Source of the DNA: Ignavibacteriota bacterium | GTDB taxonomy: Bacteria; Bacteroidota; Ignavibacteria; UBA10030 | Assembly: GCA_963727825.1 (NCBI GenBank) | Contig: CAVSHO010000007.1 | Coordinates: 128,001 to 192,000 of the forward strand | Length of the DNA: 64,000 bases | Direction of reading: 5' to 3' | Shown here: one piece after another, positions 1-16,569 of the stretch | Position numbering within the stretch: the first letter of the stretch is position 1 | Layout: each line of letters begins with the position of its first letter | Program-made: the position numbers and the translations under genes | The notes under the pieces: generated by a model | Seen by the model: the letters and a program-made list of their open reading frames with translations, nothing else | Told to the model about the DNA's origin: nothing | The model's database searches: none

Positions 1-107
1 ACGATGTGATGGCTTCGCTAAAAATTAACATCCATTTTTTAACCAAAGCCCAATGGATTTTGGAAATAGAATAACTGTCTGATTTATCAGAGGGCGGAGA
101 ATCCATC

Positions 108-186
108 GGCATCCATTGAAATGGATGCCTCATTATTCAACGAAACCCAAAGGGTTTGAGAATTATAGCAGTCCGATTCATCGGAC
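108..186. repeat. Three hairpins upstream of TnpA (IS200/REP-type end structures)
   Basis: GGCATCCAT-tgaa-ATGGATGCC (108-129), AAACCC-aaa-GGGTTT (143-157), GTCCGA-ttca-TCGGAC (171-186), directly 5' of an HUH transposase. Confidence 0.65.
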
Positions 187-203
187 GATAGGGAAAGACA
201 ACT

Positions 204-641
204 ATGCAAGTACGCCAAGGTACATTTAACAAATTGTTTTATCATTTTATTTGGACCACGAAAGATCGATCTCCAATTATTGACATCAAAATTGAAAGTG
301 AGATCAGAAAAGCGTTATTTTCGAAAGCAAATAAACTACGTATTGATATTCTTGAAACCAATGGAATGGAAGACCATATTCACATGCTGATTCAATCAAT
401 CCCCTCACTTGCACCTTCAGATATTGTGAAACATTTTAAAGGATCATCTTCTCATTTTGTGAATCATATAACACTCAGGGACGATAAGACAAGAACACTT
501 TATTGGCAAGATGGATATGGAATTGTTACCGTAAGTCCAGGTGCTGTAGAAAGTGTAAAGAAATATATTCGAAATCAGAAAGAACATCATTCAAAGAATG
601 ACCTCAATAATGAATTAGAAAATTGCATATATCAAACTTAA
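204..641 (+). mobile_element. tnpA: IS200/IS605-family Y1 HUH transposase (TnpA), no tnpB
   Basis: LFYHFIWTTKDR, HUH motif DHIHML, WQDGY, catalytic Y in KYIRNQKEHH. Confidence 0.9.
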
Positions 642-841
642 GGTTGCATGTAGTTTGTCTTTAATTATTATAGCATAATGGCTCTGCTAAAATCAAGGCT
701 TCAAAGAAATACAAAACCCGATAAAGAACTTCGAAAAACCAGCATCATGTGAAACATGGTGTAGTGACCGATAAATATTAACTTCCTGTCCTTTACTTTC
801 ATAAATCATTAACTCAAACATTCATAATTTATATTTTTTAG

Positions 842-870
842 TTGACAGAAAGAAAAAGAATTCGTACAGT
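842..870 (+). promoter_or_regulatory. Putative sigma70 promoter for the teneurin-like gene
   Basis: TTGACA-17 nt-TACAGT. Confidence 0.45.
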
Positions 871-1106
871 TGTATAAGGGTAAAGCAACTGTTTCTTTTT
901 TCCATCGCTAATTTTAAAATCGATTTAACACAGTTATGTCTTCAAGTGTGCTTCTCAGGGAGGTCATATTGTATTATCCATTCAATAAGCCGATAAGTCT
1001 TGAAGCCAATGTGTTGATATGCAAATAAGCTAGGACTTGTAAATAATCTCATACGACTGACGAATATTAATTTCTTCACTATCAATAAATCATCGGGGGG
1101 GGATTT

Positions 1107-4100
1107 ATGTCAAGGATCATTTCACTATTTCTACTTATTGTAACTATCATTTTCTGTGCGGAAGCTTCAAGCGTTAGTATATTTGGTCCAAAACGTTATG
1201 ATCGCACAACCGGCAAACCCAATACTTGTCAAGATAACTTTGTTTTAAAGCAAGGAGCGACAGCTCCATTCACGCTCACAGTCACCAATGGAGCGCCAAA
1301 CGGTTCAAATCGTGTTTCAAGCGGAACGGTTACAATCAATGGAGTTGTGATTATCAAGCAATCTGATCTCAACCAACAAGTGGGATCACTTCAGCGCGTG
1401 ATATCACTTAATGCGAATAATACTATCGAGGTAGATCTCTCAAGTACGCCCGGCTCATATTTAACAATCGAAATTACTGGACAAGCTGGAACAACAATTC
1501 CGATTCTTAGTATTACTCAGCCCACTGATGGATTTATTACGAAAACATCTCCGGTGTCAGTCGTCGGTACTGTGAGCGGCACTACTCCATTAATTGTAAA
1601 AGCTAATGATTTTCTAATGACTGTCAATACAAACGGTGTTGTCAGTGGACAAGTAGCATTGGTGGAAGGAAGTAATAACATTAGTTTCATTGCAACCGAT
1701 GCTACAGGAGGCACCGCGACTGTTGTTCGGAAAGTAATCTTAGATTCACGTCCACCGACTTTGATAGTTAGTACTCCTGTTGATAATTTCACTACCAACC
1801 AGACATCAGTGAGCGTCAGTGGGACAGTAAAAGATTCGACATCAGTGACTGTGAAGGTAAATGGAACAAGTGTTACGGCTTCCAATAGCTCATTCAGTAG
1901 TACTCTTGCACTTGTTGAAGGTATTAATACAATTACGATTGTTGCGACTGATGCAACAGGAAATCAAACGACAGTCGCTCGCACAGTGAGGAGAGATAGT
2001 CAGCCGCCGGTACTTGCTATAACACAACCGATAGATAGATTGATTACAAACCAATTAACAGTTCCAGTTACCGGCACTGTAACGGACCTGCCCACCAACA
2101 GTCAGGCGGGTGCGAGCCAAGTGCAAGTCACCGTCGATGGAAAACAGGTATCTGTCGATCATCATAATGCGTTCTATGCACTTATAACACTTGCAGAAGG
2201 CCAGAATACGATAACGGTTGTGGCAACCGATGCTGCAGGGAATTCCACGAAACTTACTCGAATGGTAACACGGGATGATGTTTCGCCAACTCTAACAGTA
2301 AGCGAACCTGCCGATGGTCTAGTGACCAAGAGTAATTCCATCAGTGTGAAAGGAACTGTCCACGACCAGACAACCGTGACTGTGCAAGTCAATGGTGTTG
2401 TATTTCCGGTTGATCAAACAGGAGCGTTCAGCGGCACTTTGTCCTTGAAGGAAGGCAAGAATATACTACAGATCGTTGCCACAGATGCAGCGAAGAACTC
2501 CACAACTATTATACGTACAGTCATTCGTGATACAACACCGCCGGATATTGATGTCTACACACCATGGAATAATATTACGACGGGTGATAGCGTTGTTATA
2601 GTAAGCGGTAAAGTCACTGATTGTACTGCAACAGTCGTAAATATTTCAATCAATGGTGGAAAGAGTAATCCTGTTCCTCTGCTATGTTTTGGTTTTTTTA
2701 TTCAGAAAGTATCGTTGAGCGGTGGAACGAATGTCATTACAATCACAGCTACAGATGCTGCAGGCAATAGTTCAATCGTAACACGAACCATCAATCGAAA
2801 AGGCACAACTCTCAAGCTAGTTGTTTCAGAGCCAGTGGATGAAACGATTACACGTGCTGGTTCTATTCTTGTAAAAGGCACAGCAACGGGAACGGGTGCA
2901 ATTACGCTGAAAGTTAATGGAGGTGTTATTAGTGTCTCATCTGATGGATCTTTCAGTACTTCGGTGAATCTTGCAGAGGGGACGAATCTCATCACCACAA
3001 CTGCTACGGATGCTTCAAATACAACCTTGACCGTCACTCGACTTGTCATCAAAGACACCACACCCCCGGTATTGATTGTTGATAAACCGGTTGATGGATT
3101 CCTTACGAAGGACGCAGCCGTTGCCGTGAGTGGCACAGTGAGCGACTCAACAAGCGTAAACGTGTTGGTGAATGGTCATGCAGTCTCCGTTGGAATAGAT
3201 GGATCCTTCAATTATTCATTATCCACTGTCGAAGGGACGAATGTCATTACCATTGTTGCAACAGATACATTGGGTAATGCAACGACCATAACGCGATGGA
3301 TCAGAAAAGACACAACGCCACCAACCTTGACTATAACGACACCCAATAATGATGCGATTACCTCTGTCGACTCGATTTTTGTAGCGGGAAGTGTGAAAGA
3401 TTCTTCGGCCGTAACACTAAAAATAAATGAGGTGTCGATCAATGTTAATGCAGATGGAACATTCAGCGGTTATGCTCCCCTTTCATCCGAAGGGGCAAAT
3501 GAGTTGTATGTTATTGCCATAGACGCATTGGGAAATGTAACCACGAGCTCACGTTTGGTAATAATGGATACACAGCCGCCAATCGTCAATCTTACATCAC
3601 CAATCGATAGTCTTATTACTAATCTCCAATCTATAACAGTAAGTGGAACAGTCACAGACTCCACTACTGTAACTCTAACGATAAATGGGAATAGTCCCCA
3701 AGGGATAAATGTATCCCTTGGTGTAGGCGGAGTTTTCAGTTATCAGTTGCCAGTTGCAGAAGGATGGAATACAATTATTATTGTAGCGACTGATGCAGCA
3801 GGAAATAAAACAACCATTACTCGAACAGTTAATAAAGACACACAACCTCCCGTTGTCAATCTTACATCGCCAATTGATAGCCTTATTACTAATATCCAAT
3901 CCATCACAGTCAATGGGACTGTAACAGATTTAACAACGATATCTTTGACCGTTAATGGGAATCCGGTAACCACAGGAAATAGCGGCACCTTTAGTGCGCA
4001 GATATCATTAAATGAGGGTTCAAATACCTTTACTATCATTGCGACAGATGCGGCGGGTAATTCCACGACAATTTCAAGAGGGGCGGTCCTCGATTCGCAA

Positions 4101-7100
4101 GCGCCAACCGTAAATTTACTTTTACCTGTTGATTCAACGATAACAAATCTCTCGTCGATTACTGTTAGCGGAAAAATAACAGACGCTTCCTTTTCATCGC
4201 TTACAATTGCAGGAAATGTTGTTACCGTGAGTACGGACGGATACTTCTCAACAACTGTAAGTCTTAATGAGGGATTAAATTCTGTTGTATTGACGGCTAT
4301 AGACAAAGCCGGAAACACAACAACAATTTCGAGATCAATAATCCGGGATTCACAAGCGCCAGTTGTGAATATCCAGTCTCCGATCGATAGTCTCATTACA
4401 AAACTTCAATCTATTACGGTGAGCGGAACTGTTAGCGATTCGACTGAAGTGCAGTTGACTGTGAAGGTCGGGAGTGGAACTCCCTCCCAGCTTGAAGTTG
4501 GAAGCGATGGAACATTCAGGACCGTTATTAATCTGGTTGAAGGAAAAAATATTATCACAATCGGAGCTTCCGATGCAGCGGGAAATAAAACAACAGTTTC
4601 AAGATTAGTTATCCGGGATACACAAGCTCCAATCGTCAATCTCACTTCACCAATCGATAGTCTCATTACCAATCTCCAATTGGTCACTGTGAGCGGAACA
4701 GTTTTAGACTCCACCTCGGCAACTCTGAAGATTAATGGGAACAATGTGCCCGTTGGTGTAAGCGGAGTTTTCAGTTATCAATCGTCAATAATTGAAGGAA
4801 AGGATACGATAACGGTTGTTGCAACGGATGCTGCTGGAAATACTACTACAATTTCGAGATTGGTAATTCGAGATTCGCAATCCCCAATTATTAATCTCAC
4901 CTCACCAATCGACAATCTTATTACAAATCTCCCATCAGTCACTTTTAGTGGGACAGTAAAAGATTCGTCGGCAGTAATGTTGACTGTGACAGTCGGGAGT
5001 GGAACTCCCTCCCAACTTAAATTAGGAAGTGATGGAACATTCAGCACGCAAGTATCATTAGTCGAAGGCACTAATACTATATTAATCACAGCCACAGACA
5101 CGGCAGGAAACTCTACAACCATCATTCGTAATGTGCGACTAGATTCAACACCGCCGAAGATGGTTCTTACATCACCAATTGATAGTTCAGTGACGAATAA
5201 AACAAAAATAGTAATAAGCGGATCGGTCGTGGATTCAAGCTCTGTTACTTTTACCGTCAATGGTATTGCATTTCCGATTAGCACCAATGGGTTATTTTCG
5301 GATACGCTTTCGATCAATGAAGGGAAAAATTATTTTAGTATCGTTGCAACCGACAAAGTTGGGAATCAAACTACTATCAAACGTACTGTTATCCGTGATA
5401 CACAGGCGCCGACGATCTTGATTGCTTCTCCAACAGCGAATGCTACTACAACTGACAGCTTAATCTCGGTGATTGGTAGCATTATTGATTCGACACAAAT
5501 ATCCATAACTGTTAACGGTGCTATACAAACAACAGGTCTCAATGGAGGGTTTACATTACCGTTATTCCTTTCCAACGGTAATAATACCGTCTCTGTTGTT
5601 GCGACTGATCAAGCCGGCAACACATCGACGCTTATTCGAACGATAACAAAAGTTTCAATGCCGCCAGATCCTATAACAGTTGCTCCAAAGATTGATGCCA
5701 CAATTGCAACTAACATTTGCGATGCTACAGAATTTTTATACACAGGTTCGAACACGATACAAAAAGGGATGACTCCAGGTTCAATTAGTAAAGCTCAAGT
5801 TTCTGTTATACGAGGAAAAGTGCTAGATGGAAATAAACAAGCTCTAAAAGGAGTTAATATAACTGTATTGAATCATCCCGAATATGGAAGCACTATAAGC
5901 AGAGATGATGGCATGTATGATCTTGCTGTTAACGGCGGATCATACATAACGATTAATTATGATCACGTTGGATATTTGTCTGCACAGCGACAGGTTGATG
6001 CCCGATTGCAATTATATAGACAAGCAGATGACGTTATACTTTTACGTATGGACACTGTGGTGCAGCATGTTGATTTAACAACGCCCCAAATTGTGCAGGG
6101 AAGACCAGTAAGTGATTCATTAGGAACTCGCAGACCGGCTTTGTTTATTCGCCCCGGGACATCTGCGAATTTGGTTTTCAATAAATATACATATAGAGTA
6201 TTAAATGCTTGTTCTATCCCGGCAAATCGTTGGTGTTCTAATACTATTATTCAACCGTCCGTAACCATTCCGACGCTGGTAGATAGTCTCGTCCCTACTA
6301 AATCAATTTCTGTCCGAATGATGGAGTACACCGCAAATGCAAACGGAGAGATCGCAATTCCCGGTGTATTGCCAGCCAGCGTGGCATATACGTTTGCTTT
6401 TGAATTGAGTGCTGATGAAATGCTCAGTGCGGGGGCAAGAGATATTCGATTTAATCAACCTGCAGTATTTTATCTAGAAAATGTTTTGGGCTTCCCGGTT
6501 GGATTGACAGTTCCTTTTGGTTGGTATGATAGACAAAATGGATATTGGAATACATCGCCAAATGGAAAAGTTATTAAAATCATAGACACCGTTGGAGGCA
6601 TTGCATCTATAGATTACAACGGAGATGGCATCGCTGAATTATCAGATACGTTGTTGGTTAAGGGAATTTCATTACTTGAGCAACAATACCTTGCCTTAAA
6701 TTATAAAAAAGGTCAATCGCTCTGGCGATGTGAAATAACGCATCTTGGCACATTCGCTGCAGGATTCACAATGGTTGGGCCATCGAATGCGCAAGAGCCG
6801 CAAAATCCACTGCCGGATCGCTATGCAAAAGTTGATCGAGATAATATCGTAGCCGGTTCAGTGATTGGAGTTCAGAATCAGACGCTCAGCGAATCTACAC
6901 CAATTGTCAATACTCCAATAACCATGAACTATAAAAGCGATCGTGTCTTTGGAAGAAGAGAAGCATATTGTCTCGATATTCCTCTTACAGGAACAACAAT
7001 TCCGCAGGGAATGTCGAAGGTAACATTAGAGATAGAGATTGTTGGAAGAAAATATGATTCCACATTTACGCCCCAACCAAATCTTACATATCACTTCGAA

Positions 7101-10100
7101 TGGGATGGAAAAGATGCGTATGGCAGAAGAGTTCAAGGTCAGCAAAATATTTTAACTATCATCACATATTCTTATCCCTCTCAATTTGCTTTGCCACCAG
7201 ATTATAATAATTGTTTTGCGACGCCTTCTGGTCAGATAATAACGCAATATGTACCGGGCTGTAAAATGATTAGCAAGACCCAAATTTGGGAAGGTAAAAT
7301 TGGCGCGTTTGACTTTCTATCACTTGGCATTGGAGGCTGGAGCTTAAGTCTGCACCATGGTTACGATTGTTTAGGCCGTATTCTTTACAAAGGTGACGGA
7401 ACGGTAAGCAGCGCAAATGTAATGGATAATGTTATCAATACCGTTATGGGAAACAAAGGAGATATAAATAATTGGTGCGCTGATTATGGCTTAGATGGGA
7501 CACTTGCGACACAAACTATGGATTGGAATGTATTAAGCCTTGCCTTTGGTAAAAACGATGAATTGTATTATAATGTCGCAAATAATTATATCCGAAAAAT
7601 AGATACCGCGGGAATAATAAATACTATAGGCGGACTTATAGGTAATGGTACTATATCGTATGACACAAGCACAGGTAAGTTAGCAAATTGCTGCGCTTTC
7701 AATTATAACGCTGCTAACGCAGCAATTAATGTTGGACCTGATGGTTGTGTTTATTTTGTAGATTATTTACTGGATGTTATTTGGAAAATAACTCAATATG
7801 GAGAACGGATTCGATATGCAGGTGTTATAGGAGCAAATTCTTCTAGTGGAGATGGTGGCACTGCCACTCAAGCCTCCTTTAATAGTCCATCATCTATTGC
7901 ATTTGGAAAAGATGGATGTTGTTATATCTTTGAAGGAAATAATAGCCGAATCAGAAAGATTTCTCCGGATGGTATTGTTACAACTGTTGCAGGCACAGGC
8001 GTGAGCGGTTATAGCGGCGATGGAGGACCAGCAACAAATGCCAAGATCCAAGGAGGGATGGTATATTCTAATCCTAGTTATATTAATGGTAATGGAACTA
8101 CCGACATGGTAGTTGGAGACGATGGCTCTATTTATTTTGCTGAAGGTGCGGGATGTCATATTAGAAAAATTACACCGGATGGCATTATACATACAATTGC
8201 TGGTACTGGAGACCAGTACAATACCGGCGATGGCGGACCTGCGGTGAATGCTCGTGTCTGGTACCCGATGAGTCTTTCATTGGGAAAAGATAGAACTCTA
8301 TTCTTATCGACAAGAAATTCAATTAGAGCCATAGCAACAGATGGATATATTAAAACTATTGTGGGCGGCGGAAATAATATATGGTTAGATAATTGTCCCG
8401 CAACCGCATATCAATTGACTTCCCAGCCCGCTATTGCAATGGGGCAAGATAATAATCTTTACGCAGCTGAAGCTTGGACTTCACCCAAAGCCTATTCGCT
8501 TAGCCACATTTTTAAAGTCACACCACCGCTTCCCGGTATTACGCTGAGCGAAATCCTTGTTGCTTCAGAAGATGGATCAGAGCAATATGTCTTTACATAC
8601 TCCGGCAGGCATCTGTGCACACTTGATGCGCTGACCGGCGTTGTAAAATATAGCTTTGGCTATGACTCGACTTATAAACTTATTACTATCACAGATGTTG
8701 ATAGTCTTGTAACACACATTGAGCGAGATTCCAATGATAATGCGACAGCAATTATATCGCCCTATGGTGTCCGCACAGAATTAAATCTCGATTCACTTGG
8801 ATACTTATTACACGCCGTAAATCCAGCAAGCGAGTCTAATCAATTTACATATACATCCGGCGGTTTGATGACGAGCAAGACTGATGCCCGCGGTAATACA
8901 TACAATTATTCATACGACTCTCTTGGTTATTTGACAATGGATTTAGATCCGGTTGGCGGTTATACAACGCTTAGCCGTGTGTACGACTCAACAGGATATA
9001 CCATAACCTCGTTGACAGCGATGGGGAAGAAAACAACATATCGTGTGGACCATTTGCGCGACGGCTCGCGTGTGCTCACCAACACCGATGCGAACGGATT
9101 AAAAACGATTACTACGATTGGAACCGATGGCTCCTCGACAACAACTACACCTGATGGTATGAGCACACCTGACCAGCAAAAACCCGATCCGCGTTACGGC
9201 ATGCAGTCGCCTTTGCAAAATGTTACTGTAAACACACCGGGCGGCTTGCAATCCAATGTAAATCAGTATAGAACAATAACGCAGATGACAGGCAACGCGG
9301 TAACGGGTTTGCAGGATAGCATTATGGTCAATGGTAAACCATTCAAGACACGATGGGATGGCAACCAAAGGATGTTGACAAAGATCAGCGCTGAAGGACG
9401 ACAAACCTTTTCCTTCTATGATGTAAAAGGAAGAGTAATTAAGGATTCTATTCCAGGACTTTTAGCAACAACTCATAAATATGACAGCAAAGGAAGAAAG
9501 ATAGAAGACAACCAGGGTGGAAGAAAAACGACATACGCATACGACTCACTTGGTAGACAAGCAAAGGTGACAGATCCTTATGGAAGAATTACTCAGTTCT
9601 TCTATGACTTGTCAGATAGGTTGGTGAGGACTGTTCTACCCGACTCATCGGAAGTATCATTCACATACGACAAGAATGGGAATATGCTTTCGTTGACTCC
9701 GCCATCTAAACCAGAACATACTTTCGATTATTCAAAAGTGGATTTGGAAACACTATACACACCTCCGTTTGCTGGAGATAGTGCAAGGGCGACTGCAAAA
9801 ATCTACAATTTTGATAGGGAGATTACTTGCATTGCTCGACCTGATAGCTTGAATATGAATTTCTTTTATGGCGGAAAAGGTTCATTAGCTGGCCAACCCA
9901 AAAAGATTTCCTATGATCGAGGAACAATGACCTTCCTTTACGATACGATTAAAGCGTTAGTTACGGGAGTAATTTCTCCAAATGGAGATTCACTGCTTTA
10001 TCAATATGATGGTCAATTGCCAAAGTATGTTCGCTGGACTGGTTCTGTCAATGGAAATATAAAAGTCAGATATAACAACGATATGAAAGTTTTAGCAGAG

Positions 10101-11647
10101 ACTATCAACAATAAAGACAGCATTAATTTTGTTTATGACAAAGATGGATTGCTTACCAATGCAGGAGCGCTCAAGTTAAAATCGAGTACAGCAAACAACT
10201 TGTTACTAAGCGATACTTTAGGAAATGTAGTGACCAACTATATCTACAATTCTCTTGGAGAAATAGCAAGTCAGCAATCGCTTTTCGGCTCGGCAGTTTT
10301 ATATCAAGTGAATTATACCAGAGATAGTTTGGGAAGAGTTTCTGAAAAGGCTGAAACAATTCAAGGCATAGCAACAAAATATGATTATGTATATGATGTC
10401 AAAGGACAACTTTTGCAGGTATCGAAAAACGATACGATTGTTTCCACGTACACTTACGACCCAAATGGCAATCGTATTGCACACATGACCCCAATTTCTG
10501 CTGACAGTGGAACATATGATGTACAAGATAGATTACTCACATACTCATCGACTCAATATCTATATTCTCAAAATGGCGACCTAAGACAGAAGATAGTGGG
10601 CACCCGCCAAACAGACGGCGGGCAAGCAGACACGACCCATTACGACTATGATGCTATGGGGAATCTTCTTTCCGTGGTTTTGCCAACGGGTACACGTATT
10701 GATTACATTACAGATGGAGCCGGTCGTCGTATTATAAGAAAAACTAATGGACAAATTACAAATCGATGGTTATACTCTGATGAATTGAGAATCAGTGGAG
10801 AAGTCGATAGCGTTGGAAACGTTGTGAGTCACTTCGTCTATGCGACAAAACAAAATGTGCCGGAGTATGTTTTGAAAGGTAGTATTGCTTATAGAGTTGT
10901 GACAGATCAGCTTGGAAGTGTAAGGCAGGTGATCAATTCAGCTACAGGCCAGGTTGTTCAGCAAATGGATTATGATGAGTTTGGAAACGTAACCAACTCC
11001 AGCGGTCAACAAATTGTGCCAATGGGGTTTGCTGGAGGGATATATGATGCTCAAACGGGACTAACAAGGTTTGGGGCAAGAGATTATGAAGCCAGTGTTG
11101 GAAGATGGATGGTAAAGGATCCGATATTATTTGCTTCAAACTCAATGAATCATTATGGTTATGCAGGAAATAATCCCATAAATCTTTTTGATATAAGTGG
11201 TAATTCTGATCTTTGGGGGAAGCTATTGCTGCTTTTACATTTGCGGCATCAACGACAAGCCTGATAAATGATATTTGGGAATACGTTAATTCAAAGGGAA
11301 GCGATATTGGTGCAACAATAGGGCTTTATGCTGATACATGGGGTATGGGTGCAAGTGTGATTAATTTTGCTAAAGCGGCAAGAGAATACGAAAATGTCGG
11401 TGATGTTAGAACTGATCCTTTAACAGCTCTTATTGAAAAACTTGGCGGAAAAATTAATGTCTGTAATTTTACAGAAACAATGGTATCAGCTGCGATGACA
11501 GCTCAGTTTGCACATACCATGGATCTCATGAGTAAGGGTTCTAACTTGAGAGCAGCGGTTTGGACATTATCTGCTCTTGCCACTCTTCAAGCCGGTATAA
11601 ATTGCTGGATCGTTGCTGAAATGAATTTAGGAAAGCAAAAAAAATAA
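1107..11647 (+). CDS. Giant secreted teneurin-like Rhs/YD protein: signal peptide, 16 Ig-like repeats, carboxypeptidase-regulatory-like/FN-plug region, NHL propeller, YD shell, Rhs core, C-terminal payload (payload separated by a 1-nt frameshift at about 11215)
   Basis: ORF 1107-11264; 16 A(T/I/S)DxxGN-type units; teneurin-like motifs WDGKDAYGRRVQG and GGWSLSLHH; NHL repeats (GDGGPA); core RFGARDY...GRWMVKDP...NNPINLFDISG; one extra G at 11215-11219 fuses ORF 11213-11647. Confidence 0.88.
2087..2110. repeat. 24-bp in-frame hairpin+tetranucleotide insertion (adds LPTNSQAG)
   Basis: Minus strand CCCGCC-N8-GGTGGG-CAGG; removal restores VTDASQV, matching sister repeats. Confidence 0.75.
3695..3709. 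repeat. 15-bp in-frame hairpin+TAAA insertion
   Basis: TCCC-caa-GGGA-TAAA; removal gives INGNSVSLGV, like sister repeat INGNNVPVGV. Confidence 0.6.
4466..4493. repeat. RAYT-type REP copy inside the coding sequence
   Basis: GGTCGGGAGTGGAACTCCCTCCCAGCTT closely matches intergenic REP GGTCGGGAGTTAGAACTCCCTCCAAACTT (14496-14524). Confidence 0.75.
4992..5018. repeat. Second RAYT-type REP copy inside the coding sequence
   Basis: GTCGGGAGTGGAACTCCCTCCCAACTT; read as VGSGTPSQL. Confidence 0.75.
10603..10626. repeat. 24-bp in-frame hairpin+CAAG insertion in the YD shell
   Basis: CCCGCC-aaacagac-GGCGGG-CAAG; removal restores KIVGTDTTHY. Confidence 0.8.
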
Positions 11648-11668
11648 ACATCAAAAGGAGTTAAAATT

Positions 11669-12160
11669 ATGTTCATTATAATTAATGGCATTTTTTGTAT
11701 TGCATTGATGGTATTTTTGAGTCGTTCGTCAAACAAGCCGGCACGAATTGATGGAACAAGCGGTAATATTATTCTCTATTGTGGTGCCCGTTATATAGTT
11801 TTTGCTTTTATTGGATTTTTATGTGCTTTTGATATTCTATACATATTCCATCCTATTCTCGGAGAAATTACTTTGAATTCTATAATAATTTTCCTTCCTG
11901 TGGGTGCATGTATTTATGGTGGATTAAAAATGTTTCTTATGGCGAGGCGCTATGAAATTGAACTGACCCACGATGCAATTATTGAGAAGCAAATAATAAG
12001 GAAACCAGTCAAAATTGAATGGGAAAAAGTAAAGAAAGTTCTTAATATCAACCGTGGTGTCGAAATATATAGTATTGAGGGAACAAAAATTAGAATTCCT
12101 CAAACGATGGATGGATATTTAACTCTTCTTAAAGTAATAGAAGAAAAGCATCCTAGATAA
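11669..12160 (+). CDS. Membrane protein, probable immunity protein
   Basis: 3 hydrophobic segments plus soluble C-terminal domain; AGGAG SD; 21 nt after the Rhs payload stop. Confidence 0.6.
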   Translation: MFIIINGIFCIALMVFLSRSSNKPARIDGTSGNIILYCGARYIVFAFIGFLCAFDILYIFHPILGEITLNSIIIFLPVGACIYGGLKMFLMARRYEIELTHDAIIEKQIIRKPVKIEWEKVKKVLNINRGVEIYSIEGTKIRIPQTMDGYLTLLKVIEEKHPR

Positions 12161-12164
12161 ATAC

Positions 12165-12237
12165 CTTGTTCCCAAATTCTCCGTCCATAAAACGGCGGAC
12201 AAGTATTTGGGAATGGAAGGTTTGAAGCTCTGCTTCA
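12165..12237. repeat. REP-like palindromes (TTCCCAAAT/ATTTGGGAA; GAAGC/GCTTC) with a nested 24-bp hairpin at 12180-12203
   Basis: TTCCCAAAT-tc[TCCGTC-N8-GGCGGA-CAAG]t-ATTTGGGAA; a related fragment CCAAGCTTGGGAATGAG lies at about 13678. Confidence 0.65.
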
Positions 12238-12321
12238 GAACTAAGGATGTTAACAGAACTTGGAATAACCGAGTAATGGTTGGGAGAACATCAAAGATTT
12301 AGTAAGCAGTATCGGGAGTGT

Positions 12322-12354
12322 ACCTCTCCGATCGCTGGGAGCGGTCGGAGAGGT
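12322..12354. repeat. Strong hairpin
   Basis: ACCTCTCCGATCGCT-ggg-AGCGGTCGGAGAGGT, 15-bp stem with one G.T pair. Confidence 0.7.
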
Positions 12355-12360
12355 GGTACC

Positions 12361-12469
12361 AAGTTGTGAAGGAGTTCCGCTCAAAGATAAGGCATGGCGG
12401 ATAAATGCACTCCTGAACTAAAAAGTGAAACAAATAGAATGGTCGAGAATTAGAACTCCCTCACAGCTT
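12361..12469. repeat. REPIN (inverted REP doublet) with a 30-bp loop insertion at 12376-12405
   Basis: Near-identical to 14446-14526 apart from the insert TCCGCTCAAAGATAAGGCATGGCGGATAAA. Confidence 0.85.
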
Positions 12470-12525
12470 AGAGGCGCTTAGTGGTATTCCAAAATACTTT
12501 ATATAACCTACAGTAAGGTAATACA

Positions 12526-13674
12526 ATGCTCCTTGTACCATACAAAATGGAGACAACGTTCACGCGAATCCCGTTTACGAATGCGGCAATTATCGTTGTG
12601 ACGTCATTGATTTTCTTCCTTCCCTTTACAGGTGCTATTACATTTAATGATCTTGAACCTTTTGTGTTAAAAGACTGGGACTTCAGCCAACTGATAGGGA
12701 GTGCATTTTTGCATGGAGGTTTCTTCCATCTTCTTGGCAATATGCTTTTTTTATGGATTTTTGGTAACGCTATCTGTGGAGCTGTAGGAAATATAGCTTA
12801 TCCATTTCTCTATTTGTTTCTGGCGATTATTTCCGGGTCAACTTATCTCATAATGAGTAGTCAACCAATGATTGGTGCAAGCGGCGCGATCAATGGTATT
12901 GTCGGTATGACACTTGTTTTTTTTCCGAAGAACCGTATCCATACCTTTTATTGGTTTTTTATTCCAATAATATGGCTTATCAAAACTGGAAAGTTTAAAA
13001 CGAAAACCAGTTGGATGATTTTGTACTGGCTTATCTTTGATATCTTTGGCGCCATGGCTGGTGGTGACGGCGTTGCGCACTGGGCACATCTCGGTGGATT
13101 TATGGGCGGAGTGATAGTTGGATTAATTTTATTACAATTCCATGTTATCGTTACGCATAGCCCTTCTTTATTGGATGTGTTATCAGGAAAGGCATCAGAT
13201 CCAGATGCGTTCAGCGATATGGATTTAGAGACTCTTGCCACTTCTCATAGAACACAGAATCCATCGAATGCATTGACGCCGGTCGAACAACAAAAATCTG
13301 CTGCCATAACAATGCAACCTTCCCAACCACAAGAGACACCTACTGTACCAAATATTCATCTCTCGCGATGTGTAGGTGAGGGAAGCCCTGTGACATGCTA
13401 CATTGTTAATAAAGGCGCAACTATAAAAAGCCCACAGCTGAAAGTACCGCAGGGAGTAACGGCGCTCATGAATTCAAAAATTGCACTGCGTACACGCGAA
13501 TCCGGATGGATTCGATTTTCCACTGATGATCAGAGTTCAATTGATAGCATAGAGTTCATTCTGGGATATAAGAACTCATTAAATGAGTTTCATAAAATGC
13601 GCTTTCGATGTATCCCATCGGCAAATACATTGACCATGATTTCGTCGACCGAGCCGCAAGAAAAAGAATTATAG
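12526..13674 (+). CDS. Rhomboid-family intramembrane serine protease with C-terminal soluble extension
   Basis: FLHGGFFHLLGNM, catalytic GASGA, HWAHLGG. Confidence 0.9.
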   Translation: MLLVPYKMETTFTRIPFTNAAIIVVTSLIFFLPFTGAITFNDLEPFVLKDWDFSQLIGSAFLHGGFFHLLGNMLFLWIFGNAICGAVGNIAYPFLYLFLAIISGSTYLIMSSQPMIGASGAINGIVGMTLVFFPKNRIHTFYWFFIPIIWLIKTGKFKTKTSWMILYWLIFDIFGAMAGGDGVAHWAHLGGFMGGVIVGLILLQFHVIVTHSPSLLDVLSGKASDPDAFSDMDLETLATSHRTQNPSNALTPVEQQKSAAITMQPSQPQETPTVPNIHLSRCVGEGSPVTCYIVNKGATIKSPQLKVPQGVTALMNSKIALRTRESGWIRFSTDDQSSIDSIEFILGYKNSLNEFHKMRFRCIPSANTLTMISSTEPQEKEL

Positions 13675-13799
13675 TAGCCAAGCTTGGGAATGAGAACCCT
13701 CAATTGTGAAGAAGTCGAACTCCTGAACGGAGATAAGAGCGGGACAAGTGCAAGAAATTATGAAGGTGAACAAGGTTTATTTAATGTCCAAACAGATCC

Positions 13800-13857
13800 A
13801 AGTTGTGAAGGAGTTCCGCCATAAGATAAGGCATGGCGGATAAATGTACTCCTGAAT
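13800..13857. repeat. REP upstream of RAYT with a 30-bp loop insertion at 13815-13844
   Basis: AAGTTGTGAAGGAGT[TCCGCCATAAGATAAGGCATGGCGGATAAA]TGTACTCCTGAA; a degenerate copy lies at about 13702-13728. Confidence 0.85.
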
Positions 13858-13880
13858 TAAAATTGTTAAATAATTATACG

Positions 13881-14420
13881 ATGAGCCGATGGAAAATTAT
13901 ATCTGGCGTCAATCTCTTTTTTATCACAACAACTATTGTTGAATGGAGGAGCGTGTTTGTTGCTATCCCATTGTTTGAGACAATAATGGAAAGTCTAAAG
14001 TTTTGTCTTGCAAATAAAGAACTGCATCTACATGGTTATGTTATTATGCCCAATCATGCCCATTATATTGTTTCTAGTGACCCGCCGGAAAAGTTATCCG
14101 ATATTATGAGAGATTTTAACAGGTTCACATCTCAATGCATTACTGACGTTTTAGAAGAAATGCATAGGGATGAACTGCTTGAGATTTTTCACAAAGCTGC
14201 GATGGACGAAGGTCGTGGAAATCGATATAAAGTGTGGCAGGAGGGATTTCATCCTATTGCGATTGATACAGGAGCGTTTTTTCAACAGAAACTAGACTAT
14301 TTGCACGAGAATCCCGTACGGAAGGGATTTGTTGAGAAACCGGAATACTGGTGTTATTCGAGTGCAAGGAATTATCTTTTTGATGATCATTCAATTATCC
14401 CTGTTGAGTGTCTCGAATGA
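13881..14420 (+). mobile_element. REP-associated tyrosine transposase (RAYT, HUH)
   Basis: FFITTT, GYVIMPNHAH (HUH), WQEGFH, KLDYLHENPVRKG, YWCYSSA; REPs on both sides; likely start is ATG 13881. Confidence 0.9.
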
Positions 14421-14424
14421 ATTG

Positions 14425-14526
14425 GGTCGGGAGTGCAACACCCCTAAGTTGTGAAGGAGTTGCACTCCTGAACTAAAAAGTGAAACAAATAGAATGGTCG
14501 GGAGTTAGAACTCCCTCCAAACTTAG
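14425..14526. repeat. REP fragment plus uninterrupted REPIN downstream of RAYT
   Basis: AAGTTGTGAAGGAGTTGCACTCCTGAAC ... GGTCGGGAGTTAGAACTCCCTCCAAACTT (two hairpins in inverted orientation). Confidence 0.85.
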
Positions 14527-14591
14527 TTTATTGAGAACTGAAATTTAAATATCGCTGTACTATATCAAAAGTACACACTTAGGGAGTGTTT

Positions 14592-16569
14592 ATGAAAAAG
14601 CGAGGCATAATTATATCTCTTGTCGTATCTTTTACTTTCATTGCGTATGGTCAGAAATCAGAACCATTTAAATCTCCCGAAATAAAAGCGCAGCAAGCAG
14701 ACACACTCAGTTCCAGTTTAGAGACTCCGGTTCCATTGCCGGATACAATTGCAATTAATAATCATGTTTTACCGCAAGGCGCTAAGGATACAACCACGCT
14801 GAGCTTCCGCGATACGGATTTAAGGGATATCTTCCGTGCACTAGCGGCAAAACATAACTTAAACATCTTCATAGATAATACAATCAACAAACATTCTACA
14901 ATCTCACTCTCCAATGTGCAAGTGTACAATGCAATCAAATTTATTTGCCAGCAGAATGATCTTAAGTTGAGCTTAGATGGATGTATCTTTAAAATTTTGC
15001 CTCAACCTCCTCCACCAAAAGCAGAACCGCTGCCGGCAAAAGTGCCATGGGTCTATTATGGTAATAATTTACTATCCGTAAAACTGAAGAATGACGATCT
15101 TGAAACATTTGTGCTGGAAATAGAGAGGAAGATGCGGCAAGAACATTCTTATCCTTAGCGGTACATCGGGAAATTTAAACGGCACATTAAACGATATCGA
15201 TTTTGATATAGGCTTTACGCAATTATTGAACAATAACGGTTTTGCTGTCCAGAAAAAAAATGGTGTATATATTGTCAGTCGATTGGAATATTTTGTCGGC
15301 CAGCAAACTCAAGGCGGAAGTCAAAAAGCAGGGCCGTATTGGATCAGTGTGCATGATTCATTAGTCACTGTTGACGTTACCAATGCGCCATTAGACCGTG
15401 TGCTGAGCGATATAGGCCGTCAGCTGAACAAAGATATGGTATTCTACAGTCAGGTCACTGGTAATATTACTGCACGGGCAACAGACATCCCGCTGGAGAA
15501 TGCCTTCAATCTCTTGCTCAGAAATTCAAACTTTACTTATCGTATTTCAGATGGAATGTATTTTATCGGTGAAAAAGCGAATAAGACGATGACCGCTACA
15601 AAGCTGCTTCGTCTAAAGTATCTGCGCGCAGAAAAAGTATTGGAATCCATACCTCAATCGATTACATCAATGGCTGTTTTAAAAGTTATCAAAGAACATA
15701 ATGGAATTGTCGTTGTGGGACCGAACGATATAATCACTCAGGCGGAAGAATATCTTCAAGCTATCGACAAGCCAGTCGCACAGGTGCTCATCGAAGCAAT
15801 TGTCGTCGATTATGACCGTACGAAAGGACTCGATCTCGGAGTAACTGCGGGGTACCTCGGTTCAAAAGATACAACTACATCATTCTCTCGCACCGATGCG
15901 CTTATTCCGGGAGTCAATATGATGTTCTCAGGTCCTACACTTAATAACGCTTTGAGCGCTATCGGTGCGACAAACCTCGGCAAGCTTCCAGCTGACTTCT
16001 TTTTAAATTTGAAGGCGATGGAACAAAGGGGAATTGCCAATGTAAAATCACGCCCCTTACTTGCAACACTCAACGGCTATCCGGCAATGCTCAGCATTGG
16101 TACGACGTTCTATTTCGAACTCACGACTACGACTCCTTTTTCGCAAAACCAAAACCAGACATACCTATCCACCAGCCAACAATTTACAACAGTTGAAGCT
16201 GACACAAAACTCGAGATTACTCCTTATGTCGGTTCTGACGGGCAGATCACTGTCGAAATAAAGCCCGACTTCAAAACACCGGTTGGTCAACCGATAAATG
16301 GAATTCCTCCTAACATCAACAGGCGTGCTATGTCTTCCACACTTGTGATGAGAGAAGGGGAGACAATCGTCTTGGGCGGTATGGTGCAGGAGACAGAATC
16401 CGAATCGCGCACGCAGGTGCCTATACTTGGTTCAATTCCACTGCTCGGATATTTGTTTTCTTCCACAAGTCATAGCACTAATAAATCGGAATTGGTAATT
16501 TACATCACACCGCATATTTCGTATGGTGAAGCGTTCCATAATGTGAGTCTGCCGGACCATGAAGAATGA
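14592..16569 (+). CDS. Secretin (GspD/PilQ family), split by one frameshift near 15130-15155
   Basis: N-terminal LSFRDTDLRDIFR domain; QVLIEAIVVD; GETIVLGG, VPILGSIPLLGYLF, ELVIYITP. Confidence 0.88.

Follow-up and report, generated by a model that had tools for sequence, protein, structure and literature searches.

Several kinds of short dispersed repeat described from bacteria and organelles resemble the subject of this report, a family of 18-30-nucleotide (nt) hairpins with a 3′ tetranucleotide tail, two copies of which lie in frame in a teneurin-like gene of an Ignavibacteriota bacterium (GenBank assembly GCA_963727825.1). Passages of Di Nocera et al. (2013, PMC3733652) describe repetitive extragenic palindromic (REP) sequences as hairpins of 20-40 nt tagged with GTAG or CGTC, some of which lie within open reading frames (ORFs) and encode extra residues, and sections of Bertels and Rainey (2011, PMC3116915) regard the REPIN doublet as the unit that moves. 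In-frame fusion of repeat elements to genes is among the topics covered by the review PMC3184786, portions of which, together with portions of PMC3733652, treat the Rickettsia palindromic elements as palindromic repeats that lie in frame in functional protein genes. The Nostoc repeat SDR5 is described, in an excerpt of PMC4390886, as inserted precisely within HIP1. For the yeast mitochondrial element GC42, part of Wu and Hao (2015, PMC4478555) reports a hairpin whose stem is under constraint and which shows a putative AG duplication; retrotransposition has been proposed for this element. No account of the present hairpin family, or of repeats in Ignavibacteria, was found in the limited literature collection searched.

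The stretch of DNA analysed here, referred to as the window, comprises 64,000 nt (C7:128001-192000, forward strand of contig CAVSHO010000007.1) of a 3.12 Mb genome with 41% G+C in 14 contigs, labelled G000 beside relatives such as G005 and G019. The two in-frame copies, termed sites 1 and 3, are probably copies of a miniature mobile element, non-autonomous and moved in trans on single-stranded DNA. As judged from filled and empty sites, the unit inserts precisely, singly and without target duplication. Insertion prefers the unpaired loops of existing hairpins, including REPs, terminator-like stems and other copies of the family, and the 5′ end of the element often adjoins the 5′ arm of the host stem, while copies within genes survive only with a length that is a multiple of three and in tolerant surface loops, where eight residues are added.

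In-frame copies in the teneurin-like gene

The host gene (1107..11264, plus strand) encodes a teneurin-like protein of 3385 aa with Ig-like repeats and TTR, FN-plug, NHL and YD-shell regions. Pfam families matched by the protein are PF09136, PF19077, PF25023, PF25020, PF25021 and PF05593, and the PF09136 Ig-like domain accounts for 16 matched stretches, in addition to Big_13. The original prediction, made from the letters of the window, had described three insertions in this gene, at 2087-2110, 3695-3709 and 10603-10626, that lack a target duplication. All three sequences are present as written there, and comparison with orthologues places exact gaps of 24, 15 and 24 nt at the respective positions, with no target duplication at any of them. 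Treating the three as one family holds for sites 1 and 3, where the gap is the family unit to the base, and is not borne out for site 2, the 15-nt type of which has a single copy in the genome and which is considered separately below.

Site 1 (2087..2110, minus strand; CCCGCC-TGACTGTT-GGTGGG-CAGG) is a 24-nt copy in an Ig-like repeat, antisense and in frame, that encodes LPTNSQAG. The orthologue in G005, about 80% identical in its N-terminal part over residues 301-949, has an exact 24-nt gap here and lacks these eight residues, and the insert is found once among the 13 internal Ig-like repeats of the protein. A reading of site 1 on the plus strand, with an A-rich loop, was rejected, since the 24-nt gap would then differ from the family unit. 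An AlphaFold2 model of the Ig-like domain was computed with 12 aligned repeats as input and has a mean pLDDT of 90.1. It places the insert in the loop that joins strands 22-30 and 44-47, at which confidence drops to as low as 62, and this placement of the insert on a structure model supports the view that copies in genes add eight residues to predicted protein loops.

Site 3 (10603..10626, plus strand; CCCGCC-AAACAGAC-GGCGGG-CAAG) lies in the YD-shell in sense orientation, in frame at codon phase 1, and adds RQTDGGQA. When the YD segment was searched in 40 relatives, matches were obtained in five other genomes, and seven homologues from four of these were aligned; the eight residues are absent from all seven. 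A clean 24-nt gap is seen against the two closest homologues, in G005 and G019 (84% and 78% identity), and removal of the stretch from CCCGCC to CAAG restores the codons GGC ACA GAC (G T D), which are the residues of G019. The site is also covered by a public contig of 458 nt with zero differences.

The hairpin family

The family unit consists of a GC-rich 6-bp stem (YCCGCC / GGCGGR) enclosing an A-rich loop and followed by a 3′ tail of CAAG, TAAA or CAGG. The loop is usually 8-9 nt long, less often 4-5, 11 or 14 nt, with the consensus MMAAAGAY. A genome-wide scan with the pattern put forward in the original prediction gave 26 matches in 3.12 Mb, and the strict form (YCCGCC-N8-9-GGCGGR followed by CAAG, TAAA or CAGG) gave 17, against none in the reversed, uncomplemented genome that served as control. 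From the counts of the two hexamers (411 and 394), about 0.05 chance pairs are estimated per loop length. Among 39 oriented matches with an 8-nt loop, the next tetranucleotide is TAAA in eight, CAAG in seven and CAGG in two. The possibility that CAAG and TAAA tails generally follow GC-rich hairpins was rejected, as no general enrichment is found among 6618 such hairpins, in which CCCGCC and TCCGCC lead the stems that bear family tails.

A relaxed scan filtered by loop composition yielded 41 candidates, four of which were judged probable noise. In all, about 40 copies of 18-30 nt are present in the genome, mostly extragenic, with four in genes. Their existence, together with orthologous and paralogous empty sites, bears out the proposal of a family of minimal mobile elements made of a hairpin and a tetranucleotide. 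The further proposal that every copy is a multiple of three long was true of the six copies then in view and does not extend to the genome: 24 nt is the commonest length (24 of the 41 candidates), followed by 25 (eight), 26 (three) and 23 nt (two), with one candidate each of 22, 27, 28 and 30 nt, and 15 of the 41 lengths are not divisible by three. Nor does the element appear sized to add loops to proteins, as had been suggested, given that non-coding copies too are most often 24 nt long and that four of about 40 copies lie in genes. A short subfamily, CCCGC-CTGCT-GCGGG-CAGG (19 nt) and similar forms of 18-19 nt, accounts for 11 matches against one in the control. The outermost stem pair covaries (C-G in 49 loci, T-A in 36, C.A in 11 and T.G in none); the loci were drawn with a pattern that fixes Y and R, and subfamily descent could contribute to the covariation. 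Among the 41 listed copies there is no inverted pair within 200 nt, and both close pairs are on the same strand. A search of window positions 1-16000 against Rfam 15 returned nothing relevant and three unrelated sub-threshold matches.

Insertion into hairpin loops

Non-coding copies had been noted at 12180, 12376 and 13815 of the window, and all three exist, the latter two with a paralogous empty site at 14460|14461. The 24-nt copy at 12180..12203 (plus strand; TCCGTC-CATAAAAC-GGCGGA-CAAG) is intergenic and occupies the loop of an outer hairpin, TTCCCAAAT/ATTTGGGAA, with a 9-bp stem. The copies at 12376..12405 (TCCGCT-N14-GGCGGA-TAAA) and 13815..13844 (TCCGCC-N14-GGCGGA-TAAA), both on the plus strand, are 30-nt long-loop variants nested in hairpins of a family named REP-A, the first within the hairpin loop and the second just 5′ of a gene for a REP-associated tyrosine transposase (RAYT). 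An empty REP-A hairpin (AAGTTGTGA-AGGAGT-TGC-ACTCCT-GAAC; 14446..14473, plus strand) is located downstream of the same RAYT gene. The window thus contains two forms of a repeat of at least 57 nt, one that includes the 30-nt unit (12376-12405) and one that lacks it (14460|14461); they differ by one clean gap, and the copy at 13815 shares this empty site.

Filled and empty paralogues were paired in four host hairpin families, namely REP-A and the families GTCAGGACG^TAACTCCTGAC, AACCTTGTCAAGGTT^TCA-AACCTTGACAAGGTT and CGTTCCCAACATC^TTGTTGGGAACG, in which the caret marks the insertion point, and on contig C12 one family copy lies within the loop of another. Every filled and empty pair is accounted for by one set of boundaries only, in which the unit begins at the first stem base and ends with the final base of the tail; no target duplication is present at any pair compared, orthologous or paralogous. 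Of 40 copies, 18 are enclosed by an outer stem that pairs perfectly over 6 bp or more, as compared with 374 of 20000 random sites (1.9%). In nine of these 18 nested copies no unpaired base separates the element from the outer 5′ arm, and 1-7 unpaired bases precede the 3′ arm. The 5′ and 3′ flanks of the listed copies are not conserved, and no target motif was found in them.

Two further observations concern the same region. A hairpin at 12322-12352 of the window, CCTCTCCGATCGC-TGGGA-GCGGTCGGAGAGG, looks like an empty host hairpin, and hairpins of this type elsewhere in the genome (C9:162284-162310 and C1:246925-246951) hold a 27-nt variant, CCCGCC-TGCGTKCCTTC-GGCGGG-CARG. In public run X2, a single low-depth contig diverges upstream of 12217 and resembles the outer hairpin without its 24-nt unit; it may represent a strain variant or a paralogue.

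Copies in other genes

All four copies within genes are 24 nt long, two in the teneurin-like gene and one each in genes for a major facilitator superfamily (MFS) transporter and a type IX secretion system (T9SS) sorting domain, and exact orthologous empty sites are found for all four, so that the empty sites expected in homologues from relatives are available for the latter two as well as for the teneurin-like gene. The MFS transporter gene (PF07690; C9:140517-141938, loci L153 and L170) carries its copy antisense in the central loop, and exactly 24 nt are absent from four orthologues of the same genus at about 80% identity. This copy is nested in an older insert, itself in frame, that spans about 34 aa and contains a REP-like hairpin; the older insert is present in five genomes of the genus and absent from the three that were aligned of the five closest orthologues (92-95% identity). 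The gene has had a two-step history, with the 24-nt unit present within the older insert in G000 only. In the T9SS C-terminal sorting domain (PF18962), the copy lies in sense orientation in the last turn, and its eight residues are absent from all eight fully aligned homologues. The T9SS-tagged repeat protein to which it belongs (C11:428704-430826, locus L152) is split into overlapping frames at 705-2411 and 2288-2830, possibly through a frameshift or as a pseudogene.

The family unit also occurs in frame in long ORFs of other organisms. One Bacteroidota assembly carries two such units, which encode PANKMAGK and PAKKMAGK and occupy the same position in putative RHS tips; a 1041-aa ORF contains a further in-frame unit that encodes SATKMADR.

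Distribution

The family is present in all 16 genomes of the genus. With a looser pattern it is detected in 31 of 41 relatives, including each of the 15 other genomes of the genus, at 3-31 copies as compared with 0-2 in controls. The strict 24-mer occurs in 16 of 301 sampled genomes of the phylum, all of them in the class of the window, and by rank in five of five genomes of the genus, two of nine of the family, two of 17 of the order, six of 42 of the class and none of 227 from other classes. A scan of one genome per species returned at least 117 stretches, where about one is the estimated chance expectation, and the record labels among the matches listed include Ignavibacteria, Melioribacter, Bacteroidota, Desulfobacterales, Deltaproteobacteria, KSB1, Pirellulales, Chitinophagaceae and one labelled Synechococcus. 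Five genomes of other phyla hold 18-57 copies each (controls 0-1), and in the genome with 57 strict matches nearly all of those among the matches listed are one identical 24-mer. In Desulfobacterales the unit lies within a larger repeated element, some copies being arranged head to tail. A 56-nt spacing there gave the appearance of CRISPR-like arrays, a reading that was rejected because the units lie within the larger repeated element and the 'spacers' are similar to one another.

Site 2 and other loop indels of the teneurin-like gene

Site 2 (3695..3709, plus strand; TCCCCAAGGGATAAA, that is TCCC-CAA-GGGA-TAAA) adds SPQGI to Ig-like repeat 7 and corresponds to an exact gap of 15 nt, or five residues, in G005; by this alignment it is a real lineage-specific indel. 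It is a candidate member of the family, its termini, TCC...GGATAAA, resembling the ends of the hairpin family. The 15-nt type has one copy in the genome, and a looser form has two, against 0-1 in the control. The insertion overlaps a 10-bp perfect palindrome, unique in the genome, in which CCAAGGGATA (3698-3707) is the reverse complement of TATCCCTTGG (3712-3721), 4 nt downstream. Site 2 may thus be a degenerate relative of the family or a local palindrome-templated insertion, and the templated event is at least as likely.

The loop of site 2 is also longer by five residues in Ig-like repeats 10 and 12, where the extension stems from copies of a different repeat, REP-B. The copy in repeat 10 (AGCTGGGA-GGGAGT-TCC-ACTCCC-GAC; 4467..4492, minus strand) and that in repeat 12 (4992..5017, minus strand) are both antisense and in frame, and each encodes GSGTPSQL. 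The 26-nt REP-B motif (AGYTGGGA-GGGAGT-TCC-ACTCCC-GAC) has 15 matches in the genome, two within the teneurin-like gene and 13 outside it. A similar stretch, GSETPSQL, is found in one repeat of G005, and the REP-B event may for this reason be older. A different Ig-like loop of the G005 gene contains an 18-nt insert that is specific to G005 and lacks a family hairpin.

At its 3′ end the teneurin-like ORF stops about 20 residues past the conserved end motif of the YD-shell, and a 144-aa ORF in another frame (11213-11647) overlaps this end (11264); the overlapping ORF could be a small separate gene, a frameshift or an assembly error. On contig C25 of G005 (loci L002, L007 and L013), the orthologous N-terminal part is fused to a divergent YD C-terminus (52% identity), and a close orthologue of the C-terminus (84%) is encoded further downstream by an ORF of its own (574 aa), which is the displaced-cassette arrangement typical of RHS loci.

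Proposed mechanism and candidate enzymes

Precise insertion of a single unit without target duplication, the conservation of hairpin and tail and the use of loops as targets are all in keeping with integration on single-stranded DNA of a kind similar to that of HUH enzymes. In this scheme a strand-transferase acting in trans would recognise the folded hairpin together with its tail, and insertion would take place on single-stranded DNA. The HUH idea in general is the leading, though unproven, mechanism. As to the class of enzyme, a Y1 HUH transposase of the IS200/RAYT superfamily is the likeliest and is proposed tentatively, at somewhat below even chances, with lower odds given to the two genes of this superfamily in the window. 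A bolder proposal, which is regarded as doubtful, is that the 18-30-nt single-hairpin unit, among the smallest self-propagating DNA known, invades single-stranded hairpin loops one unit at a time, parasitises RAYT-linked REPs and stays almost identical over distant phyla (an Ignavibacteria-like class, Desulfobacterales, KSB1 and others). A conserved and horizontally shared strand-transferase would then be required, one that recognises only the foot of the hairpin and the 4-nt tail and that might differ from the RAYT and IS200 enzymes of the classical kind.

The two candidates for a trans-acting enzyme in the window are an IS200-like Y1 transposase, TnpA (204..641, plus strand; PF01797 at 4.6e-29), and the RAYT-like Y1 transposase (13833..14420, plus strand, with a likely start at 13881; PF01797 at 4e-07). 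TnpA is present as a single copy in the genome, with one tblastn match, and no family hairpin is found at its ends. The RAYT has a paralogue at 79% identity on contig C8, and REP-A hairpins stand on both sides of it, the upstream one holding a nested family copy. A curated copy of the family lies within 300 nt of three of the nine Y1 loci in the genome, and a fourth, the window RAYT, has a 30-nt variant just upstream. Close homologues of the window RAYT occur in 16 of 41 genomes and those of TnpA in 24 of 41. A PF01797 match is found in all 26 relatives that have at least three copies, and the five relatives that lack PF01797 hold 0-1 copies.

Mobilisation by the TnpA or RAYT of the window, which the original prediction had proposed, is not supported by these and several other observations: TnpA is single-copy without hairpin ends, the RAYTs are flanked by REPs other than the family, two genomes of the same genus with 12 and 15 copies have neither close homologue, and one of 12 Y1 loci in other phyla is near a copy. 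No single Y1 orthologue is common to all copy-bearing genomes, and no copies were found beside Y1 genes in the loci of G015, G007, G013 and G011.

A wider set of observations weighs against trans mobilisation by a Y1 enzyme or against the hairpin element itself as described. The presence of PF01797 in 36 of 41 relatives, which are moreover kin, makes the co-occurrence weak. The two genomes without a close homologue of either enzyme at E<=1e-10 are G015, which is closed and has 12 copies, and G005, with 15; the only Y1-like gene of G015 is a weak match, and no copy lies near it. Among 80 loci from many taxa, two weak Y1 matches are all that was found near copies, and in the five genomes of other phyla the one Y1 locus of 12 with a copy nearby has a short form. 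Other REP families, which carry nested copies, flank the RAYT genes, and proximity of copies to these genes may therefore reflect no more than an abundance of hairpin targets. A conserved 5′ tetranucleotide, as predicted by targeting of the IS200/IS605 type, is missing; orientation relative to GC skew shows no bias (23 to 17); and the low-depth contigs of four public runs of one study contain no joints, no 24-nt skips and no presence/absence polymorphism. The loop of site 1 is also atypical for the family, being A-rich on the strand opposite the tail. Taken together, the weak co-occurrence, the missing homologues, the foreign REP flanks and the lack of motif or skew bias single out no gene as the enzyme.

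A separate Y1 locus is of note in the same genome. At C10:250041-250790, a 184-aa Y1 gene (250348-250686, minus strand) has AACCTTGTCAAGGTT hairpins (REP-C) on both sides, some of them empty, one with a 24-nt copy and one with an 18-nt short form. The locus has the appearance of an independent REPtron.

Alternative explanations

Spread without a dedicated enzyme is conceivable through template switching or short-patch gene conversion between hairpins, in which a stalled polymerase would copy about 24 nt elsewhere and return. Such events are expected where forks stall, and the insertions do cluster at hairpins; no enzyme gene is consistently linked to the copies, neither a target motif nor a strand bias is seen, and site 2, where CCAAGGGATA is the reverse complement of sequence 4 nt downstream, resembles a local templated event. 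However, the boundaries of the inserted unit are always identical and donor and target share no flanking homology, whereas the recurrence of the same 24-mer across the class and in other phyla, with a covarying stem pair, argues for recognition by a conserved factor, and the burst of 57 strict matches in one genome, nearly all identical among those listed, is likewise difficult to derive from template switching, which we regard as unlikely. Selection of the hairpin as a functional motif, such as an RNA stabiliser, part of a terminator or a protein-binding site, would account for the conservation of stem, loop and tail over wide taxa and for the many copies downstream of genes within terminator-like stems, and REPs have been reported as RNA elements in passages of PMC3733652. 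It is nevertheless quite improbable as the main explanation, since copies lie in both orientations within coding sequences, within other repeats and within each other, no Rfam family matches in window positions 1-16000, and selection leaves precise insertion and absence at orthologous sites unexplained; function and mobility can also coexist.

RNA-mediated spread, by which the transcribed hairpin and tail would be reverse-transcribed and integrated, is suggested by analogy with yeast mitochondrial GC clusters, retrotransposition of GC42 being proposed in part of PMC4478555, and by the many copies in transcribed 3′ regions. The antisense copies in genes would, however, require antisense transcripts, no poly-A or priming signature is present, and no link to a reverse transcriptase was seen, although no search was aimed at such a link; this explanation is given a small chance. 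A reading of the in-gene hairpins as chance palindromes in ordinary loop indels of a repeat-rich gene can draw on the existence of such indels, such as the 18-nt insert of G005, and on the lack of relatives of site 2 in the genome. It is scarcely credible for the in-gene hairpins as a group, for the indels at sites 1 and 3 coincide with the family unit base for base, the strict pattern has no match in the control, and the same base-exact pattern recurs in two further genes; for sites 1 and 3 it is refuted, and it remains a reading for site 2 alone. Movement of a miniature element on single-stranded DNA in trans is preferred as the probable explanation for sites 1 and 3.

Significance and comparison with known systems

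The copies described here provide base-exact, dated cases of a 24-nt element entering functional genes, each with an empty site in relatives, and open the smallest class of mobile DNA in bacteria to direct tests. Preference for hairpin loops, movement as a single unit and occurrence in several phyla set the family apart from textbook REPs and REPINs and narrow the search for the enzyme. For annotation, family copies explain lineage-specific loop insertions of eight residues, and nested copies explain composite palindromes that might be mistaken for structured RNAs.

The likeness to the REP/REPIN-RAYT systems lies in short, GC-rich, dispersed hairpins that are mostly extragenic, carry a tetranucleotide at one end and are in some cases found in ORFs, as well as in movement on single-stranded DNA via Y1 HUH transposases, which has been hypothesised for REPs. 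In-frame intragenic REPs are already published. The family differs in its tag, which is YARR (CAAG, CAGG or TAAA) on the 3′ side, or CTTG, CCTG and TTTA on the other strand, rather than GTAG or CGTC, and in that its copies are single units and not inverted doublets as in REPINs, with direct tandems in other taxa. The RAYTs of this genome are flanked by other REP families, whose loops host the 24-nt element, and whereas REP families are usually lineage-specific, the same 24-mer is found in several phyla.

Elements of the IS200/IS605 group (IS608-type) integrate as single-stranded DNA without target duplication, cleavage being set by a subterminal hairpin and a nearby tetranucleotide. These elements require distinct left and right ends, each with a subterminal hairpin, and integrate on the 3′ side of a fixed target tetranucleotide, whereas the family unit is a single hairpin without a conserved flank. 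Rickettsia palindromic elements are about 100-150 nt long and add tens of residues, in contrast to a unit of 24 nt and eight residues. The GC clusters of yeast mitochondria are likewise a mobile family of very short hairpins with a stem more constrained than the loop and an unresolved mechanism, but are organellar and show a putative AG duplication, of which the filled and empty pairs of the present family have none.

Among the eight SDR families reportedly recognised in Nostoc by Elhai and co-workers (2008), SDR4-6 are said, in later citing passages (PMC4390886, PMC2884548 and PMC3116915), to be repeats of 21-27 nt that are apparently mobile without a known enzyme, SDR5 reportedly lying between nucleotides 3 and 4 of the palindromic HIP1. 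By description, which is the basis of the comparison, these share with the present family a dispersed unit of about 21-27 nt, precise insertion and presence or absence at orthologous sites. They differ in host phylum and in target, SDR5 using one fixed octamer and the present family hairpin loops in general. The family accordingly fits the general REP-like or SDR-like kind, within which its tag, its movement as a single unit, its targeting of loops and its spread across phyla are unusual.

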